The position numbers were made by a program, and so were the translations under genes. The notes under the pieces are model-generated. The model saw only the letters and a program-made list of their open reading frames with translations, was not told the DNA's origin and did not search any database. From the NCBI RefSeq assembly GCF_036588685.1, contig NC_086380.1:33520313-33530312 (forward strand): a stretch of DNA of 10,000 nt. Direction: 5' to 3'. Each line of letters starts with the position of its first letter. Position 1 is the first letter of the stretch. The stretch comes from Mytilus trossulus (lineage: Eukaryota). This document shows, one piece after another, positions 1-10,000 of the stretch.

Positions 1-2302
1 TGAGGGTACTTTCTCTAAAAATGAGGGTACTTTTTATATGGCCTTCCAAATACCGTTTCGATCCCTAACATCACTGAAGAGACATTTATTGTCGAAATCA
101 GGATATGGTGTACTAAAGAAATATTGACACCGAATGTTTGTGGCACAACATACTGTCCACAAGTTAACAATTTTTTTTTCTGTGACGTATTAAATTTATA
201 TTAGGATCCATTTTGTTACATCTTGTGATCAATTTTATTTGGCAATCGTCAATGGCAGTCAGCAGGGTTAAAGAACATCAGTTGTTCGACCTGTTAGTCA
301 AATGCGTTTTGTTTAAATATACTTTTTCACTCTTTTGGTCTTTTGGAAAATGTTGTTTGTGCTGTTTTTAGACCCTTTTACAACGAAATTTGTTTTACAT
401 GCACACGTATAAAAACTGCGGTTTTTATCCAACGCAGTCATAGGTTTGAACGTAGTTTTCAATTTAGACTCGTTTATATTTTTTGTTTGGGCATGTATCA
501 TATTTTCCCTCTGGTTTATATGATCCGTTCATCCTATATATTGACTCTTAAAATTCAAGAGTTAATCTAAAAATGAGGGTACTTTCTCTAAAAATGAGGG
601 TACTTTTTATATGGCCTTCCAAATACCGTTTCGATCCCTAACATCACTGAAGAGACATTTATTGTCGAAATCAGGATATGGTGTACTAAAGAAATATTGA
701 CACCGAATGTTTGTGGCACAACATACTGTCCACAAGTTAACAATTTTTTTTTCTGTGACGTATTAAATTTATATTAGGATCCATTTTGTTACATCTTGTG
801 ATCAATTTTATTTGGCAATCGTCAATGGCAGTCAGCAGGGTTAAAGAACATCAGTTGTTCGACCTGTTAGTCAAATGCGTTTTGTTTAAATATACTTTTT
901 CACTCTTTTGGTCTTTTGGAAAATGTTGTTTGTGCTGTTTTTAGACCCTTTTACAACGAAATTTGTTTTACATGCACACGTATAAAAACTGCGGTTTTTA
1001 TCCAACGCAGTCATAGGTTTGAACGTAGTTTTCAATTTAGACTCGTTTATATTTTTTGTTTGGGCATGTATCATATTTTCCCTCCGGTTTATATGATCCG
1101 TTCATCCTATTGACTCTTAAAATTCAAGAGTTAATCTAAAAATGAGGGTACTTTCTCTAAAAATGAGGGTACTTTTTATATGGCCTTCCAAATACCGTTT
1201 CGATCCCTAACATCACTGAAGAGTCATTTATTGTCGAAATCAGGATATGGTGTACTAAAAAAATATTGACACCGAATGTTTGTGGCACAACATACTGTCC
1301 ACAAGTTAACAATTTTTTTTTCTGTGACGTATTAAATTTATATTAGGATCCATTTTGTTACATCTTGTGATCAATTTTATTTGGCAATCGTCAATGGCAG
1401 TCAGCAGGGTTAAAGAACATCAGTTGTTCGACCTGTTAGTCAAATGCGTTTTGTTTAAATATACTTTTTCACTCTTTTGGTCTTTTGGAAAATGTTGTTT
1501 GTGCTGTTTTTAGACCCTTTTACAACGAAATTTGTTTTACATGCACACGTATAAAAACTGCGGTTTTTATCCAACGCAGTCATAGGTTTGAACGTAGTTT
1601 TCAATTTAGACTCGTTTATATTTTTTGTTTGGGCATGTATCATATTTTCCCTCTGGTTTATATGATCCGTTCATCCTATATATTGACTCTTAAAATTCAA
1701 GAGTTAATCTAAAAATGAGGGTACTTTCTCTAAAAATGAGGGTACTTTTTATATGGCCTTCCAAATACCGTTTCGATCCCTAACATCACTGAAGAGACAT
1801 TTATTGTCGAAATCAGGATATGGTGTACTAAAGAAATATTGACACCGAATGTTTGTGGCACAACATACTGTCCACAAGTTAACAATTTTTTTTTCTGTGA
1901 CGTATTAAATTTATATTAGGATCCATTTTGTTACATCTTGTGATCAATTTTATTTGGCAATCGTCAATGGCAGTCAGCAGGGTTAAAGAACATCAGTTGT
2001 TCGACCTGTTAGTCAAATGCGTTTTGTTTAAATATACTTTTTCACTCTTTTGGTCTTTTGGAAAATGTTGTTTGTGCTGTTTTTAGACCCTTTTACAACG
2101 AAATTTGTTTTACATGCACACGTATAAAAACTGCGGTTTTTATCCAACGCAGTCATAGGTTTGAAAGTAGTTTTCAATTTAGACTCGTTTATATTTTTTG
2201 TTTGGGCATGTATCATATTTTCCCTCCGGTTTATATGATCCGTTCATCCTATTGACTCTTAAAATTCAAGAGTTAATCTAAAAATGAGGGTACTTTCTCT
2301 AA
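1..2302. repeat. Tandem satellite array 1: four monomers (573, 569, 573, 569 bp, an A/B dimeric higher-order pattern) plus the first 23 bp of a fifth monomer
   Basis: Direct sequence identity. The unit boundary motif 'aaaaatgagggtactttctct' recurs at 569, 1138, 1711 and 2280. The ORF-track copies at 313/886/1455/2028 give periods 573, 569, 573. B-type units differ from A-type by CTCTGG->CTCCGG and a 4-bp ATAT deletion (cctatatattgac -> cctattgac). Confidence 0.95.
569..610. repeat. 21-bp internal tandem duplication at the monomer boundary (aaaaatgagggtactttctct + aaaaatgagggtactttttat), repeated in every monomer
   Basis: Seen directly. Two adjacent 21-mers are 18/21 identical. The same pair occurs at 1138-1179, 1711-1752 and 4159-4200. 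Confidence 0.85.
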
Positions 2303-2325
2303 TCAAAGTGATGGATATCACTCAT

Positions 2326-2351
2326 GGAAAGATTAGAACAGTAGTTTAAAT
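2326..2351. repeat. Left TIR-like end of the insertion: GGAAAGATTAGAACAGTAGTTTAAAT
   Basis: Reverse complement of 3582-3606 is GGAAAGATAAGAACTTGTTCTAAAT. About 19/25 positions match, including the identical leading GGAAAGAT and AGAAC. The left copy lies 23 bp inside the junction (2303-2325 = tcaaagtgatggatatcactcat, itself a small hairpin agtgat/atcact). Confidence 0.45.
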
Positions 2352-2420
2352 TATTTCATATTAAGGTATGTTGGGGGAAAATGAACATTTATAGAGCACT
2401 ATTGCTGAAAATTGCATTTA

Positions 2421-2626
2421 CAGAGGGGGGAAAGGACCTTTATCAGGACTCCGGGAGCGAGTGTTTTTTAAGCTCGGGATTTTGGGATTAACCCTTTCGG
2501 AATCCGGGAATCCTTTTTTTCTGATTTCGGGACGTCGGGATTTACTTTATTTAAATTCGGGACCTCAGGATTTCTTTTTTTTAAGTCCGGGATTTCGGGA
2601 CCAGGACCCCTACTATCCCCCCTCTT
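2421..2626. repeat. GC-richer ~200-bp module: ~30-bp minisatellite (about 5 copies, consensus roughly tTCGGGAynTCGGGATTT + T-run + aag) bracketed by a perfect 9-bp inverted repeat AGAGGGGGG / CCCCCCTCT
   Basis: Seen directly. TCGGGA(T/C) or TCCGGGA pairs at ~2449, 2473, 2497, 2526, 2556 and 2585, each followed by a T-run. Inverted repeat arms at 2423-2430... more precisely 2422-2430 and 2617-2625. MITE-like, but no target-site duplication identified. Confidence 0.6.
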
Positions 2627-3581
2627 AACAGCAGGTTTTTAGAAGGAAATAATGCTTTTCCATTGAGAGGATAAAATGAGCTCAAATTAAATAATATGAA
2701 TCTCTAAATTTTCACAATTTTATTTAAACTGCAGTTTATATCTAATCTAAATTAATATGTTGCCAGTTCAGAACATGTTTTAAAAAATCAAAAAAATGCA
2801 AAATCCGTCTAGTAAATGTTATAAACTATCCTTGTAAGACAAAAAAATAGACCAACAGCTAAAAGCTTTAAAGTGGCAACAAATATAATCTAAAAATGTT
2901 GTTTTGGGGCATTTTGTAAGTTGAAACAGAGGTTATATGGCATTGAAAATACTTGAATACCTTTTATATATTCATATTTATATTCATATTTCATTTTTTT
3001 TAAATCTTGTTACTCCATTAATCATTTAAATATAATCTTTCAGATATAATTTACAGAATCACTGTATGTAATGTAGATCAAAAGTAATTGGCAATAAATA
3101 AATCTATAATCCTTATGAATATCAAACATCTAATATACACATTTGTGTATTCAATTATGAGGTCAAATACTTGTGTATTAAGAATTATATCATATTTTGT
3201 GTGGTCTGTATAATTATGTAAGACTGAGGTTGATAGGTAATGTGGTCAATTTGATTGGCAGTTTAGGAGGTGGGGCATTGTAATTAAAGGTCCACCTTGT
3301 CTCTGATTGATTAGTGATAATGACAGTGGTCAATCATACTAGTGGAATCAATACCCATTTACCTAATCAAAATGTTTTTAAAAAAGCCTGCACATCAACA
3401 CACCTTAATTACATACAATCTTGAATGAACTGCTCCAATAATATACCCAGTTTTTTTTCAGTTTATTTGTGTAGTATGTGCATATTCATGAGAACAATAG
3501 GGAACTATATTTTAGTGTGAATACATTTAGTAACAGTAGCTAACCTGTCCTGTTGTTAGGGAGGGTGGTGCCTAAGTAAAG

Positions 3582-3606
3582 ATTTAGAACAAGTTCTTAT
3601 CTTTCC
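3582..3606. repeat. Right TIR-like end of the insertion (inverted partner of 2326-2351), abutting the resumption of the satellite at 3607
   Basis: See the partner feature. It ends exactly where the satellite sequence aaaaatgagggttctttttatatgg resumes. Confidence 0.45.
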
Positions 3607-5205
3607 AAAAATGAGGGTTCTTTTTATATGGCCTTCCAAATACCGTTTCGATCCCTAACATCACTGAAGAGTCATTTATTGTCGAAATCAGGATATGGTG
3701 TACTAAAAAAATATTGACACCGAATGTTTGTGGCACAACATACTGTCCACAAGTTAACAATTTTTTTTTCTGTGACGTATTAAATTTATATTAGGATCCA
3801 TTTTGTTACATCTTGTGATCAATTTTATTTGGCAATCGTCAATGGCAGTCAGCAGGGTTAAAGAACATCAGTTGTTCGACCTGTTAGTCAAATGCGTTTT
3901 GTTTAAATATACTTTTTCACTCTTTTGGTCTTTTGGAAAATGTTGTTTGTGCTGTTTTTAGACCCTTTTACAACGAAATTTGTTTTACATGCACACGTAT
4001 AAAAACTGCGGTTTTTATCCAACGCAGTCATAGGTTTGAACGTAGTTTTCAATTTAGACTCGTTTATATTTTTTGTTTGGGCATGTATCATATTTTCCCT
4101 CCGGTTTATATGGTCCGTTCATCCTATATATTGACTCTTAAAATTCAAGAGTTAATCTAAAAATGAGGGTACTTTCTCTAAAAATGAGGGTACTTTTTAT
4201 ATGGCCTTCCAAATACCGTTTCGATCCCTAACATCACTGAAGAGACATTTATTGTCGAAATCAGGATATGGTGTACTAAAGAAATATTGACACCGAATGT
4301 TTGTGGCACAACATACTGTCCACAAGTTAACAATTTTTTTTTCTGTGACGTATTAAATTTATATTAGGATCCATTTTGTTACATCTTGTGATCAATTTTA
4401 TTTGGCAATCGTCAATGGCAGTCAGCAGGGTTAAAGAACATCAGTTGTTCGACCTGTTAGTCAAATGCGTTTTGTTTAAATATACTTTTTCACTCTTTTG
4501 GTCTTTTGGAAAATGTTGTTTGTGCTGTTTTTAGACCCTTTTACAACGAAATTTGTTTTACATGCACACGTATAAAAACTGCGGTTTTTATCCAACGCAG
4601 TCATAGGTTTGAACGTAGTTTTCAATTTAGACTCGTTTATATTTTTTGTTTGGGCATGTATCATATTTTCCCTCCGGTTTATATGATCCGTTCATCCTAT
4701 ATATTGACTCTTAAAATTCAAGAGTTTAAAAATGAGGGTACTTTCTCTAAAAATGAGGGTACTTTTTATATGGCCTTCCAAATACCGTTTCGATCCCTAA
4801 CATCACTGAAGAGTCATTTATTGTCGAAATCAGGATATGGTGTACTAAAGAAATATTGACACCGAATGTTTGTGGCACAACATACTGTCCACAAGTTAAC
4901 AATTTTTTTTTCTGTGACGTATTAAATTTATATTAGGATCCATTTTGTTACATCTTGTGATCAATTTTATTTGGCAATCGTCAATGGCAGTCAGCAGGGT
5001 TAAAGAACATCAGTTGTTCGACCTGTTAGTCAAATGCGTTTTGTTTAAATATACTTTTTCACTCTTTTGGTCTTTTGGAAAATGTTGTTTGTGCTGTTTT
5101 TAGACCCTTTTACAACGAAATTTGTTTTACATGCACACGTATAAAAACTGCGGTTTTTATCCAACGCAGTCATAGGTTTGAACGTAGTTTTCAATTTAGA
5201 CTCGT
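3607..5205. repeat. Tandem satellite array 2: same monomer family. Two near-complete units (552 and 569 bp) plus a 478-bp truncated third unit
   Basis: Unit starts at 4159 and 4728. The first unit begins at the second 21-bp sub-repeat (monomer position 22). The unit 2/3 junction lacks 4 bp (gagttaatctaaaaatg -> gagtttaaaaatg). The array ends inside ...tttagactcgt at 5205. Confidence 0.95.
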
Positions 5206-5216
5206 ATATATATATA
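5206..5216. repeat. (AT)n microsatellite at the right edge of the satellite array
   Basis: atatatatata directly follows the truncated monomer. Confidence 0.8.
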
Positions 5217-5342
5217 CAACTCGTCTAAACATCAACCCAACAATGTTGTAGGGTTGTCACTGACTCAGGGGCCAATGATGGTGATACATGGCTGTGTACA
5301 TAATGTATATACAACTCGTATAAACATCAACCCAACAATGTT
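5211..5342. repeat. Pair of 37-bp direct repeats (tatatacaactcgt[c/a]taaacatcaacccaacaatgtt) at 5211-5247 and 5306-5342, 95 bp apart, 36/37 identical
   Basis: Seen directly. They flank a 58-bp unique spacer (gtagggttgtcactgactcaggggccaatgatggtgatacatggctgtgtacataatg). Confidence 0.85.
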
Positions 5343-5451: not shown

Positions 5452-5455
5452 GTGT

Positions 5456-5521
5456 GTTACAGTAAATAGGTGAAATTCGGAATTACATGTAATTAATAAA
5501 ATTTCGGAATTACCTGTAATT
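5456..5521 (-). repeat. Left copy of an ~66-68-bp inverted repeat pair (partner 9244-9311). Contains the perfect 14-bp palindrome AATTACATGTAATT and a dense set of GTAATT/AATTAC motifs
   Basis: The reverse complement of 9244-9311 aligns at about 56/68 (~82%). The first 40 bp are 36/40 identical (gttacagtaaata[g/c]gtgaaatt[c/a]ggaat...gtaatta) and the last 11 bp are 11/11 (tacctgtaatt). Confidence 0.75.
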
Positions 5522-6954
5522 CCCGATACACTTAGCAAATACAAGTAATTCCTGAATCTGTCTAGTTATAACCAGTAATTACTAGTTTTTAAATGATTTT
5601 TTTAAAGGTGATAAAACAATGTTATAATATGGCAAGCTGATGAAAAATAAGGATAAAACAGTGAACATTATCAAAAAGTGATCAACCTAAAATGTACCTT
5701 TTTGTTATATTAAAGGGTATTAGGCACTGTTAGCTATATAATGCAAAAAAATACATTATATGTTTTGTTGTTGTTCAATCAAATTATAATTCGATTTTTT
5801 TAAGATAAGTTTGGGTCATTTTTTTTTTCTCAAAATAAGCTAAGAAACATGGCTGATGAGTTATTCACTTGCAAATGAATAATTCAACCTCAATGTAACC
5901 GTTAAGCTGGAGCTGGGTTACACATGTATTCAGCTATTAAAAAGGATAGAATGACAAAATTGAAAGTAAAACAAAAGGGATGCACCATTTGGTTTACTGG
6001 GTCGATCCACAATAAGCTCATTCACATACATGTAAAGGTAAATACGACATTCGTTTGATGTGTTTGAGCTTTTGATGGTGCTATTTGATTAGGACTTATA
6101 GTTATAAATTGACTATGAGGGTCGGTTGAAATACAGATTTACGACAAGAGATGATTTCAGCATCCCAATTGTGACTTTTCCTTTTTTGTTTTTCAAATGG
6201 TGAAGTTGAAATCATCACTTCTTAAATTTTACGGACGCCATCACGAGTTGGCTGACCGTTATGGAATATCCGTTTCACATATGACACTGGATATGTTGCT
6301 TATGTCGTAGCTATAATCCATTTCTCTTTTCACGAAAGTGGGACAACCGAATTAGACTATGTACCGGCCCTGTAATAACACGAGTATTACGACGAGTGCC
6401 ATATGTGGAGCAGGATCTGTTTTCCCTTACGGAGCACCTTAGATCCCCCCCAGATTTTGGTTGGATTCGTGTTGCTTTTTCTTTACTTTTTCATGTTGTG
6501 TCTTGCAAGTCTTAACCTTTTTTCAGCCATGGTGTTGTCAGTTTATTTACGATCTATGAGTTTAGACTTGGAACAGGCACCTGCGTTATGTGCTGTGGTA
6601 AACCAGTTTTGCCGAATACACACACGCCATTTTTCCCACTCAATAATTTATATGTGTGATTAATGATGTAAAACCAATACAGCACTGAACATATTGTAAA
6701 ATTCCACCCTAAAGCACCAAACCTACCTAGAAATAATGATGTTCATGTGTGTCTGTCTGTTTGCAAGTCAGGACTAGTTTCTTCATAAGGATTGGTGGTT
6801 TCGATTTGTTATGCGACACTATCAATATGTCAATAGCCGCAGAACATCGAGTAAACATGTACATGTATTTTAATTCTTAATGGGTAATCATTTTTGCTAC
6901 AAAAAAGGTGTTGATAACTGCTATATGACATGTGCAGTACAATTTTTGTACAGG

Positions 6955-6978
6955 TATATGTGAGCCAAAATTTGTTCC
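6955..6978 (+). repeat. Left terminal inverted repeat of the 1.23-kb element
   Basis: See the element feature. Confidence 0.7.
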
Positions 6979-7030
6979 TGTGAAAAAAGTTCCAGTGGAA
7001 CTAATATGTTCTGGGAGAACTTTTTTCACA
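6979..7030. repeat. Hairpin with perfect 14-bp arms (tgtgaaaaaagttc ... gaacttttttcaca) and a 24-nt loop containing its own small palindrome gttccagtggaac, immediately inside the left TIR
   Basis: Seen directly. Arms at 6979-6992 and 7017-7030 are exact reverse complements. Confidence 0.85.
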
Positions 7031-7080
7031 GACAATTTCTATATAATTTGTTCCATCTATATGAAATAAGTTCCACACTT

Positions 7081-7244
7081 TACCTGGTGAAATAAGTTAT
7101 GGGTTGGTGAAATTTGTTCCTTACCTAGTGAAATAAGTTCCATGTTTGTGAGATTTGTTCCTTACCTGGTGAAATAAGTTCTGGATTTGTGAGATTTGTT
7201 CCTCATCTGGTGAAATAAGTACCTTGTCTATGAAATTTGTTCCG
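7081..7244 (+). repeat. Subterminal tandem repeat: 4 copies at an exact 41-bp period (tacctggtgaaataagttNNNNgtttgtga[a/g]atttgttcct)
   Basis: Units at 7081, 7122, 7163 and 7204. Each holds one GTGAAATAAGTTCC-type half and one GTGAnATTTGTTCC-type half. Degenerate copies continue outward to ~7046. Inverted copies of the same motifs fill 7999-8182. Confidence 0.85.
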
Positions 7245-7760
7245 CTGGTTAAACAAGTTATGTTACATACTGAGCACTTGTCATCAGTGAGTTTAAAGTC
7301 ATTATAAAAAACATGTTTTATAATTGATAAGGTAATAAATAAAAAGTGTAAACATCAAATTTGGATCATGTGGAGTAAAGCAAAAGTTAATAACATTATT
7401 CTCAATAAATAATACTAAAAATGACACTTATGAACCAGGAAAGAGTAGAATAAATAATAATAAAAGTCATTCCGAAAAAAAGAATTATAATAGTTAAAGA
7501 TGAATATTTGTACTTTTTCAAAATGGACAAAGTGACTGATCAATTATATTTCAAGACATAGAAAAACAAAAGACACTCTCTTTAAAAACTGTGAAATGAC
7601 AATAGCTAAGTACATGTATGATTAGAACACCCATAACAGATCAACAGGAAATTAAAGGAGGTGGAATACCACTTCAATGATAAAATAGATACAAATTATG
7701 AAACATTATGATTCTCATCGCTTTTATTTCTTATCTTCATCCTAAAGTCATGCCTTTAAT

Positions 7761-7828
7761 CAATCTCCCATGCAGAGTTCTCGGTCCTTGAGAGAGAGCA
7801 AGGACCGAGAACTTTGCATGGGAGATTG
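7761..7828. repeat. 68-bp near-perfect palindrome (30-bp arms, 29/30 complementary, 8-bp AG spacer agagagag), flanked by the 9-bp direct repeat GCCTTTAAT at 7752-7760 and 7829-7837
   Basis: Left arm caatctcccatgcagagttctcggtccttg. Right arm caaggaccgagaactttgcatgggagattg. One mismatch (C/T). The identical 9-mers abut both arm ends. Confidence 0.9.
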
Positions 7829-7998
7829 GCCTTTAATTGCAAATGTACCCCATGCAAGCACAGTACTTATTTCCTGTGAAACAGGTTTCATCAGAACATT
7901 TTCATTGATTTCTATAAAATACCTTCTTTCAAAACTAATATCACACAAACTTAATTCACTTTTTTTAAATTTTAATATTGGAACAAAACTCATACATT

Positions 7999-8182
7999 GT
8001 CATAGTGCTGTGATTTTTGTTCCGGAACTTATTTCACACTTGGTTAGAAAATTAGTTCTGGAACAAATTTTATAGTGCTGGAACATATTTTCTGTGACAT
8101 AAGTTCCGCTGGAACATATTTCCTATGAAATTTGTTCCAGAGGAACAAATGTCACGCCGGAACAAATTTTTTGTTACATATA
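7999..8182 (-). repeat. Right subterminal arm: inverted copies of the GTGAAATAAGTTCC / GTGAAATTTGTTCC motifs with repeated GTTCC-N(0-3)-GGAAC palindromes (gttccggaac, gttctggaac, gttccgctggaac, gttccagaggaac)
   Basis: Seen directly. ggaacttatttcac is the reverse complement of gtgaaataagttcc. The same palindromic motif class occurs in the left arm (gttccagtggaac 6990-7002, gttctgggagaac 7009-7021). Confidence 0.8.
8159..8182 (-). repeat. Right terminal inverted repeat of the 1.23-kb element
   Basis: See the element feature. Confidence 0.7.
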
Positions 8183-8881
8183 CAGGCTTAAGTTTGGAGG
8201 TCTTTAGAAAGTCATATAAAAGAGACACTTAAAGCCATCATTTTGTATAATTTTATTTATGAAGAATGTCACCTTCAAGTTGCTTATTCTTTAGTTTTCT
8301 ATGTCATGTGTCATTGGTTCTATTGTTTGTCTATTTGTCTTCTTTCATATTTAGCCAGGCGTTGTAAGTTTATGTTCAATTTATAAATTTGACTGTCCCT
8401 CTGGTATCTTTCGTCCCTATTTCAATGCAAATTCTAACAACAGAAGTCTTAGTTTAAAATAATTTGTCTGATGAATTAAATTATTTCATATGTCAAGTTA
8501 GTCTGATTGATATGCAAAGTATGCTTATTAATAGAGATTTTAATGTTTCCTGATGAATAATCATTATCTTTCAACCATATATGGCATAATAGAATGTCTA
8601 TCATCAAAAAGAACGAACGAGAATTCTCACAAATGTATTTCTCATATATTGATTATATGATTGTCTTGCATGTTGAAAACGATTTTTAGCGAGTTTCAAA
8701 AATTATAAAGCAACCATTTCCCTATTTCAATTCACAAACAAATTTATAAAACATACAGTCTTTGATTCCTTTACATATACGTAATCTCTACAATCCCTAC
8801 CCCGTTACTTTATTATTTGGTATATTGATGTATGTCTCAATTTTAATACAAATTAAAATATCAAGTTTGTGAATAGCTGTA

Positions 8882-8907
8882 AAAAAAATAATTAGTAATT
8901 ACAGGTA
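8882..8907 (+). repeat. Partial third copy of the inverted-repeat end motif: A8-run + AGTAATTACAGGTA (identical 14-mer to 9242-9255, also preceded by an A8 run)
   Basis: Seen directly. aaaaaaaataattagtaattacaggta versus aaaaaaaagtaattacaggta. Confidence 0.6.
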
Positions 8908-9243
8908 CAAAAAATTAATATGTTTGAAATTTTCAAAAAAGAATTTCTTCAATATCATGAAATATTGATAAATAAAGAAGGCAAATATGAAAAATTCCAT
9001 AATCTGGTTGCAGCAAAAATTAAATTAATTTCATAAATTTATTATACATCGTGCTATCATATTTCTATTCAGTTACATACATGTCATTATTACTATATAT
9101 ACATATTGTGCTCTAACAAGTTCTAACTTATCAATAAAATGCTATATACTAACGTTAACGAGGCCGGGATAAGGTACCGGTACTTCATGTATCTCTAACA
9201 AATGTAAAATTCAAATAAAATATTATAACACTTAAAAAAAAGT

Positions 9244-9311
9244 AATTACAGGTATTTACTGAATTGTGTAGTAATTACGTGTCATTCCTAATTTCACGTA
9301 TTTACTGTAAC
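9244..9311 (+). repeat. Right copy of the inverted repeat pair. The two copies bracket ~3.86 kb (5456-9311)
   Basis: See the partner feature. Either TIRs of a ~3.9-kb composite element, or two inverted copies of a short dispersed repeat. Confidence 0.75.
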
Positions 9312-9691
9312 ATATACACCTGTGAATCTGCAGTCACAACTCTAAGGAACTAATTACCTAAAAATCTGACACCTATAATTTCATTGTGTAATTTAAAAGA
9401 ATCAAGCTGTATTAAAGAAATGTGGTACACAAATGTTTCTTGTAAACCATTTAAAAGGAGTAGGTCCGGTAAGGACCGATTTTGGCCTCAAATTTTAGTT
9501 TCATCTGATGAAAGATTTTGACCACTTTTTAAACACTTAAGTTTCTATTTCAATGGTTTCGATTAATTTATGTGAAAGATTTAAACTTATTTCGTCATTA
9601 AAAACGATCCGATTCAAGCTCAAATACGGAAAATCTACTAAATATGCGGAAAAATGTCACTTTTCACATGGTTTTTGTCCAAAACGAAATT

Positions 9692-9788
9692 GGCCCCATC
9701 CGTGTTCATCCTCAACCTTTATATATGTTATGTATCATCATCAAATACAACTTCCATTTCAATATTTTGGATGAACACGAATGTGGCC
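9692..9788. repeat. Inverted repeat with 20-bp arms (ggccccatccgtgttcatcc / ggatgaacacgaatgtggcc, 18/20) separated by a 57-bp AT-rich loop
   Basis: Seen directly. Arms at 9692-9711 and 9769-9788. Confidence 0.7.
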
Positions 9789-10000
9789 ACTTTCTTTATA
9801 CACGGAAACCGTCTAAAATTTAAGTAAAATGCTGAAATTGTTACGATTTCAGTAATTTAGCATGACTTTATGGTGCTAGTACCCAATATATGTGCATTGT
9901 ATTTTCAAAAACAGTCCATATTTATGTAGCAGAACCATTTTACTATCCAATAAATAACTAAAAGTTTACATTTTAACAATTTTGTAAAACTGCCATATTT

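Follow-up and report, generated by a model that had tools for sequence, protein, structure and literature searches.

The window analysed here is a 10,000-nucleotide stretch of Mytilus trossulus DNA (contig NC_086380.1, positions 33,520,313 to 33,530,312 of the forward strand), in which a satellite array is interrupted at positions 2303-3606 of the window by 1304 bp of non-coding DNA. We propose that this insert is probably a single rolling-circle transposon, non-autonomous and of the Helentron/Helitron2 group (HLE2; HINE, DINE-1-like), lying on the minus strand and carrying a nested 205-bp transposable element of the miniature inverted-repeat kind (MITE). The assignment is based on the architecture of the ends of the insert, which combine a short and asymmetrically placed inverted repeat pair, a stem-loop at one terminus, a fold-back copy of the repeat at the other and an oligo-T target without target-site duplication (TSD), all located at junctions that are defined by the satellite.

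A satellite array interrupted by a single insertion

By anchoring on AAAAATGAGGG and aligning the units, we established a satellite period of ~571 bp, with alternating units of 573 and 569 bp that share at least 99% identity. Seven copies, full or partial, occupy positions 1-2302 and 3607 to ~5204; they were not reported by TRF (Tandem Repeats Finder) because the period limit of this program is 500. Every unit opens with a perfect 21-bp internal tandem duplication consisting of two copies of TCTAAAAATGAGGGTACTTTC (for example at 566-606). Two unit types, I and II, are defined by four diagnostic variants and alternate as a two-unit higher-order repeat, the variants that follow unit length being GAGACATT/GAGTCATT, AAAGAAAT/AAAAAAAT, CTCTGG/CTCCGG and the presence or absence of ATAT. 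The interrupted array comprises:

1..2302, plus strand: left satellite block, ending ...CTTTCTCTAA inside the A5 run that separates the two 21-bp internal repeats (this end is also given as ...GGGTACTTTCTCTAA)
2303..3606, minus strand: inserted non-coding element of 1304 bp, or 1306 bp counting two ambiguous T/A
3607..5204, plus strand: right satellite block, restarting at AAAAATGAGGG, the start of the second 21-mer

The array is broken a single time, at 2303-3606. An intact unit holds A5 at this point, and at the insertion two A are found on the left side and five on the right, so that the addition amounts to 1304 bp and two A. The two parts of the split unit yield 26 + 549 - 2 = 573 bp, which is exactly the length of the long unit type, and the diagnostic variants (A/T, G/A) maintain the type I/II alternation across the insert. 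This is one array with one insertion, and satellite was neither lost nor duplicated apart from the two A. An earlier reading made from the sequence only had deduced from the monomer phase that a single 1304-bp insertion splits the array, with at most a 2-bp AA overlap; the preserved 573-bp unit and alternation bear out the former statement, and the latter agrees with the two A of the A5 run that are present on both sides. The boundaries of the insert are independent of the element itself, because they are fixed by seven intact empty sites, by the preserved unit length and by the two-unit register.

Further observations were made on the array. A hairpin with a 6-bp stem, ACTCTT-aaaattc-AAGAGT, precedes the 21-bp duplication of the satellite unit. 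In the unit that resumes after the insert, position 3619, which lies 13 nt past the junction, shows an A>T change that is unique to this unit (GAGGGTTCTTT, where every other unit reads GAGGGTACTTT); a second unique change is located at ~4112 (ATATGGTCC). The two-unit alternation is partly eroded in the final two units. The array stops abruptly near 5204 at ...TTTAGACTCGT and is followed by (TA)n; past its end lies a 40-nt direct repeat (5208-5247 and 5303-5342, 95 nt apart, 95% identical).

The ends of the insert have the architecture of HLE2 elements

Examination of both ends led to the identification of the following features, listed here in the 5' to 3' order of the minus strand except for the last:

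3593..3606, minus strand: 5' (sub)terminal inverted repeat (subTIR) GGAAAGATAAGAAC, 0-2 nt from the 5' terminus according to the placement of two extra T
3576..3590, minus strand: internal inverted repeat (IR) GTTCTAAATCTTTAC, complement of the 5' subTIR after a 2-nt spacer
2326..2339, minus strand: 3' subterminal inverted repeat GTTCTAATCTTTCC, complementary to the 5' repeat at 13/14 positions and 23 nt inside the 3' terminus
2307..2322, minus strand: 3' palindrome AGTGAT-atcc-ATCACT, with a 6-bp stem and a 4-nt loop, located after the 3' subTIR and before the terminus ...TTGA
3607..3608, minus strand: two surplus T (A on the plus strand) beyond the T5 of the intact unit, a placement at 2301-2302 being equally possible

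The inverted repeat pair, GGAAAGATtAGAAC (2326-2339) and GTTCTtATCTTTCC (3593-3606) on the plus strand, is 14 nt long and complementary at 13 of the 14 positions. In the window, GGAAAGATWAGAAC was matched without mismatch only at 2326-2339 (plus strand) and 3593-3606 (minus strand), the expected number of matches being ~0.2 even when up to two mismatches are allowed. The sequence-only reading had described inverted ends of ~25 bp, the left one 23 bp inside the junction: the pair is real and the offset is as reported, but the repeat is 14 bp long and its arms diverge beyond this length. A fold-back copy of the repeat, GTAAAGATTTAGAAC on the plus strand (3576-3590), was absent from that reading. 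It forms with the 5' subTIR a hairpin that has one bulge and in which 12 of 14 positions pair (-4.7 kcal/mol, z = -2.6). At the opposite end, the left filler had already been recognized as a small hairpin, and its stem AGTGAT/ATCACT at 2307-2322 (-4.0 kcal/mol, z = -3.6) was equalled in stability by none of 200 shuffled sequences.

Read along the minus strand, the locus consists of host DNA ...CATTTTT (CCCTCATTTTT), GGAAAGATAAGAAC, TT, GTTCTAAATCTTTAC and ~1.2 kb of AT-rich non-coding DNA, followed by GTTCTAATCTTTCC, ATG, AGTGAT-ATCC-ATCACT, TTGA and host TTAGAG (TTAGAGAAAG...). The termini of the element on this strand are 5' (T)nGGAAAGATAAGAAC-TT-GTTCTAAATCTTTAC and 3' ...ATCACTTTGA(T)n, and the insertion site is CATTTTT/element/TTAGAG, vs the intact CATTTTTAGAG at the seven empty sites. 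There is no target-site duplication: the interrupted unit measures 573 bp after subtraction of 1304 + 2 nt, and the surplus amounts to two T only. Two of the three possible placements of this surplus TT result in integration between two T (T^T). A variable number of terminal T has been described as belonging to HLE2 elements (PMC4067079), and because of this precedent we assign the two surplus T to the element.

In HLE2 and HINE elements the subTIRs are 11-15 nt long, the 5' one lies 0-4 nt from the end, and the 3' one is followed by a palindrome before the terminus (PMC4067079, PMC7492417, PMC11417382). DINE-1 and Cg_HINE also carry an IR that is complementary to the 5' subTIR and located 1-12 nt downstream of it (PMC4067079, PMC7492417). 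The target of HLE2 elements is oligo-T or TT, entered between two T; each flank has two or more T, and there is no TSD (PMC4067079, PMC7492417, PMC11417382). The insert agrees with this description in its inverted repeat pair (14 nt, for an expected 11-18 nt), in the asymmetry of the arms (0-2 nt from the end for the 5' arm and 23-25 nt for the 3' arm, with a tail that is a stem-loop), in its fold-back IR (2-nt spacer, for an expected 1-12 nt), in its oligo-T target and in the missing TSD. The offset of the left repeat and the hairpin filler are therefore no anomaly, because both constitute the defining HLE2 asymmetry once the element is placed on the minus strand.

To estimate how often such ends would arise by chance, we took the non-satellite part of the window as background. 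Of random end pairs, 0.2% (P = 0.002) had an inverted match of 13/14 located no more than 40 nt from both ends, and the proportions of background sequences folding as well as the real ends were 0.6% for 23-mers (3' tail) and 1.6% for 33-mers (5' end). In a joint test of the HLE2 geometry, the repeat geometry occurred in 1454 of 300,000 random end pairs, of which 126 also carried a tail with a 6-bp stem; a fold-back beside the terminal arm was additionally present in 17. The joint chance is thus ~6e-5, or 1e-4 when both orientations are allowed, and the real insert satisfies the test in the minus orientation only. The T-run target contributes a little beyond the end architecture, as 8% of the positions of the satellite unit lie inside A/T runs of at least 5 and 27% in AA/TT.

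Several points weigh against the assignment to HLE2. In an un-anchored scan of simulated 10-kb sequences, such an architecture was present somewhere in 39 of 200. Because un-anchored architecture alone is weak evidence (20% of simulations), the weight of the argument rests on the coincidence with the satellite-defined junctions. The 3' tail of 23-25 nt is short when compared to the 38-60 nt of mite families (PMC4067079), and the hairpin energies are modest (-4 to -5 kcal/mol). The microsatellite and central tandem array that are frequent but optional in HINE are absent from the insert, in which TRF detected only a 30-bp x2.5 array within the nested module and trivial AT-rich repeats. The class was assigned from the end structure at one locus, and neither the element nor its termini were retrieved a second time, which is an absence of data, the source genome evidently not being among the collections searched.

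The same ends were compared to those of a cut-and-paste element with terminal inverted repeats (hAT, Mutator or a Tc1/mariner-like MITE), which would span 2326-3606, with 2303-2325 as filler or footprint and a TSD that was lost or is 2 bp long. The significant 14-nt inverted repeat is compatible with such an element, as are the 2-nt AA overlap and the palindromic nature of the 23-nt segment, since hairpin-derived repair footprints can be palindromic. However, the flanks of 2326-3606 display no TSD (CAT vs AAA), AA differs from the TA of Tc1/mariner, and the inverted repeats at both extreme termini with a TSD of fixed length (TA; 8 bp; 9-10 bp) that characterize cut-and-paste elements were not found. 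A TSD of 8-10 bp had been suggested earlier, with CTTTCC at 3601-3606 as a decayed copy of CTTTCTCT. This would require two separate 1-nt deletions within 10 nt, beside units that are at least 99% identical, and would re-use bases of the inverted repeat: CTTTCC belongs to this repeat, its pairing partners being GGAAAG (2326-2331) and the fold-back copy (3576-3590). Furthermore, the fold-back copy, the T-run target and the presence of a tail at the position of the HLE2 stem-loop would all be left unexplained. We therefore regard a cut-and-paste origin as unlikely, and the plan to choose between Tc1/mariner, hAT and Mutator by TSD length is not supported by ends that are of the HLE2 type.

We also considered a canonical Helitron (HLE1) on the plus strand and a short interspersed element (SINE) or other non-long-terminal-repeat (non-LTR) retroposon, both of which appear extremely improbable. 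The plus strand of the insert does start with TC after a host A, as in a Helitron, but its 3' end is ...CTTTCC and not CTRR, the next host base is A and not T, and no hairpin lies ~11 nt before the end; the minus strand starts with GG. The right junction adjoins an A run that might suggest a retroposon, but this run is the satellite's own A5, seen at every empty site, and the insert has no TSD, no tRNA-, 7SL- or 5S-like head and no poly-A tail of its own.

If the insert is an HLE2 element, its mobilization can be outlined by analogy with Helitron-like elements. A RepHel protein, with or without endonuclease, whose gene is carried by an autonomous partner at another genomic site, would act in trans, nicking the 5' end and unwinding one strand. 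The 3' repeat and stem-loop would serve as termination signal, and the single-stranded intermediate would integrate between two T without target duplication, in this case into the T5 run of a satellite unit. The sequence-only reading had described the insert as non-autonomous and mobilized in trans, provided that it is a transposon; the view of a transposable element that is presumably mobilized in trans is supported by our analysis.

Content of the insert and the nested 205-bp module

The description of the insert as entirely non-coding was confirmed: its longest open frame comprises 77 codons, and Pfam, Rfam and tRNA searches returned no match. When the insert was compared by blastn to the rest of the window only chance matches were obtained, and nothing was found among plasmids and phages, which served as a vector and contaminant check. 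Joined open frames of at least 28 aa from 2627-3606, in six frames, had no relative among 5.8 billion proteins, and exact-product look-ups of a 55-aa open frame of the module and a 75-aa open frame of the satellite gave no match. The termini were sought as patterns in collections that do not include the source genome: the 3'-end pattern (subTIR and palindrome) had 0 matches in Joint Genome Institute (JGI) metagenomes, IMG/VR and GTDB genomes, and the 5'-end pattern (subTIR and IR) had 0 matches in JGI metagenomes and IMG/VR.

One part of the insert stands out by its composition and by its copies elsewhere:

2421..2625, strand not assigned: MITE-like module of 205 bp, G+C 47%, with inverted ends and TA on both flanks

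The inverted ends of the module, (C)AGAGGGGGGA.../...TCCCCCCTCT, are imperfect, one arm being without the terminal base, and four ~30-bp CGGGA-rich subrepeats are present inside. A translated search detected the module in two contigs of the European Nucleotide Archive (ENA) metagenome assembly ERZ6864376, where the DNA identity is 80-85% and the flanks are unrelated. Five contigs of ERZ6864376 share other repeats with the window at 74-91% identity and, judging from these matches, DNA from a relative of the source organism is evidently present in the assembly. No part of the element outside the 205-bp module was found in the five contigs, and the subTIR was sought in ENA contigs L001-L003 and found in none.

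These results bear on a further possibility, namely that the insert is not one element but was assembled from unrelated fragments when a double-strand break in the satellite was filled, its end features being coincidental. The sequence-only reading had named repetition of a sub-segment only, such as 2421-2626, as the sign of such an accretion. This pattern was formally found: the module at 2421-2625 is the only part shown to be repeated elsewhere, with unrelated flanks, and the remainder has no relative in the collections searched. The heterogeneous composition of the insert (G+C from 19% to 43%) is likewise consistent with an accretion. However, the module is delimited by inverted ends of its own and flanked by TA, as would be the case for a secondary insertion; for this reason we prefer to see in it a nested MITE, acquired by the element earlier or later, and not evidence for accretion. 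Moreover, the collections searched were without the source genome, the joint end architecture occurs at fixed junctions with a chance of ~1e-4, and the target is intact to the base, without the satellite deletion that break repair often leaves. We thus attribute a low probability to an accretion of fragments and retain one HLE2 element with a nested MITE.

Other repeats in the window

The DNA beyond the satellite array is rich in other repeats. An element of ~3.9 kb at 5455-9312 has at its limits inverted repeats of 44 nt that are 89% complementary (TGTTACAGTAAATAGG...). If CAGT.../...ACTG are taken as its ends, it is flanked by TA, in the manner of Tc1/mariner; it has no long open frame, and other repeats are nested inside it. 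A foldback-like element at 6954-8183 has terminal inverted repeats GTATATGT...AAATTTGTTCC and carries inverted arrays of ~20/41-bp subrepeats of the GGAACAAATTT type at both ends (7080-7243 and 8020-8183). A near-perfect central palindrome at 7761-7828 has 30-nt arms (97%), and Rfam matches to miRNA families were all sub-threshold.

Frameshifted remnants of a very widespread repeat, with the coding-like translations ...KFYGRHHELADRYGISVSHMT... and ...RRVPYVEQDLFSLTEHLRSPPDFG..., were found at 6155-6568 and 8274-8427, and ENA contigs L004 and L005 match this repeat at 74-84% DNA identity. Among representative proteins, 513 are related (E<=1e-3) to the degenerate coding remnant located at 6336-6512; they come from metagenome sources or are annotated as "hypothetical protein". 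The translations ...PEHL.SPP... and ...KFYGRHHEL.DRYG... presumably resemble abundant bivalve repeats, a likeness that we take as a lead only and not as a result.

Finally, a palindromic element at 9594-9818, whose 63-nt arms are 71% complementary, shares 91% identity with part of contig L003 (737-936). The remainder of this contig holds bacterial-looking genes (GH97, sulfatase), which suggests that L003 is a chimeric metagenome contig. A dispersed repeat at 9820-9986 shares 83% identity with positions 2260-2426 of contig L001, which also carries a copy of the 205-bp module.

Comparison with known systems

Both DINE-1 and the Cg_HINE elements of oyster are already known to reside in satellite or heterochromatic DNA, and the known picture of Helitron-like elements is unchanged by the insert. 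If our assignment is correct, the locus nevertheless provides a clean HLE2 insertion, in which seven exact empty sites reveal the ends, the T-T target and the missing TSD to the base. The termini would then be usable as seeds in order to annotate the family and to locate its RepHel partner, for a type of element that is easily mislabelled as MITE or "unknown DNA". The insertion could also be dated relative to the homogenization of the array, as one carrier unit only is present within the window.

A closer relationship between the element and its host satellite can be imagined. Helentron-type elements might be linked to the 571-bp satellite, the insert being founder or witness of an array that was seeded or spread by rolling-circle elements; we consider this very unlikely. 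On this view the insertion would come from a family that homes specifically to the satellite motif and not to just any T run. The basis for a link between Helentrons and the satellite is co-location only, that is, a 21-bp duplication with the same T5 target beside the ACTCTT/AAGAGT hairpin.

The 205-bp module is like Stowaway-like and Tc1-mariner MITEs in its size of ~205 bp, its inverted ends, its TA flanks and the existence of many diverged copies with unrelated flanks. Unlike in these MITEs, the ends of the module are imperfect, and the superfamily comparison is one of structure only.

Canonical Helitrons (HLE1) share with the insert a presumed rolling-circle mode of transposition, the absence of TSD and a hairpin near one end. 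In contrast to them, the insert has neither consistent 5'-TC...CTRR-3' termini nor an A-T target, and it has the inverted repeats that HLE1 elements lack. In the classification of HELIANO (PMC11417382), HLE2 consists of Helentron plus Helitron2. The insert holds no RepHel gene and its strand is set by convention; when read on the plus strand, it corresponds to the "HLE2-reverse" layout, with the stem-loop upstream of the left repeat and A-A flanks (PMC11417382).

The closest structural counterparts of the insert are the HINE or DINE-1-like Helentrons (PMC4067079) and Cg_HINE of Crassostrea gigas (PMC7492417), the comparison being one of structure and not of sequence. The insert lacks the microsatellite after the IR and the central tandem array of these elements, and its 3' tail is shorter. 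Like them, it has a subTIR pair with one mismatch, a terminal 5' subTIR followed after 2 nt by the complementary IR, and a 3' subTIR behind which lie a short palindrome and then the terminus. It also shares with them the oligo-T target with T on both flanks, the absence of TSD, the surplus terminal T, the absence of coding capacity and the residence in satellite or heterochromatin-like DNA.

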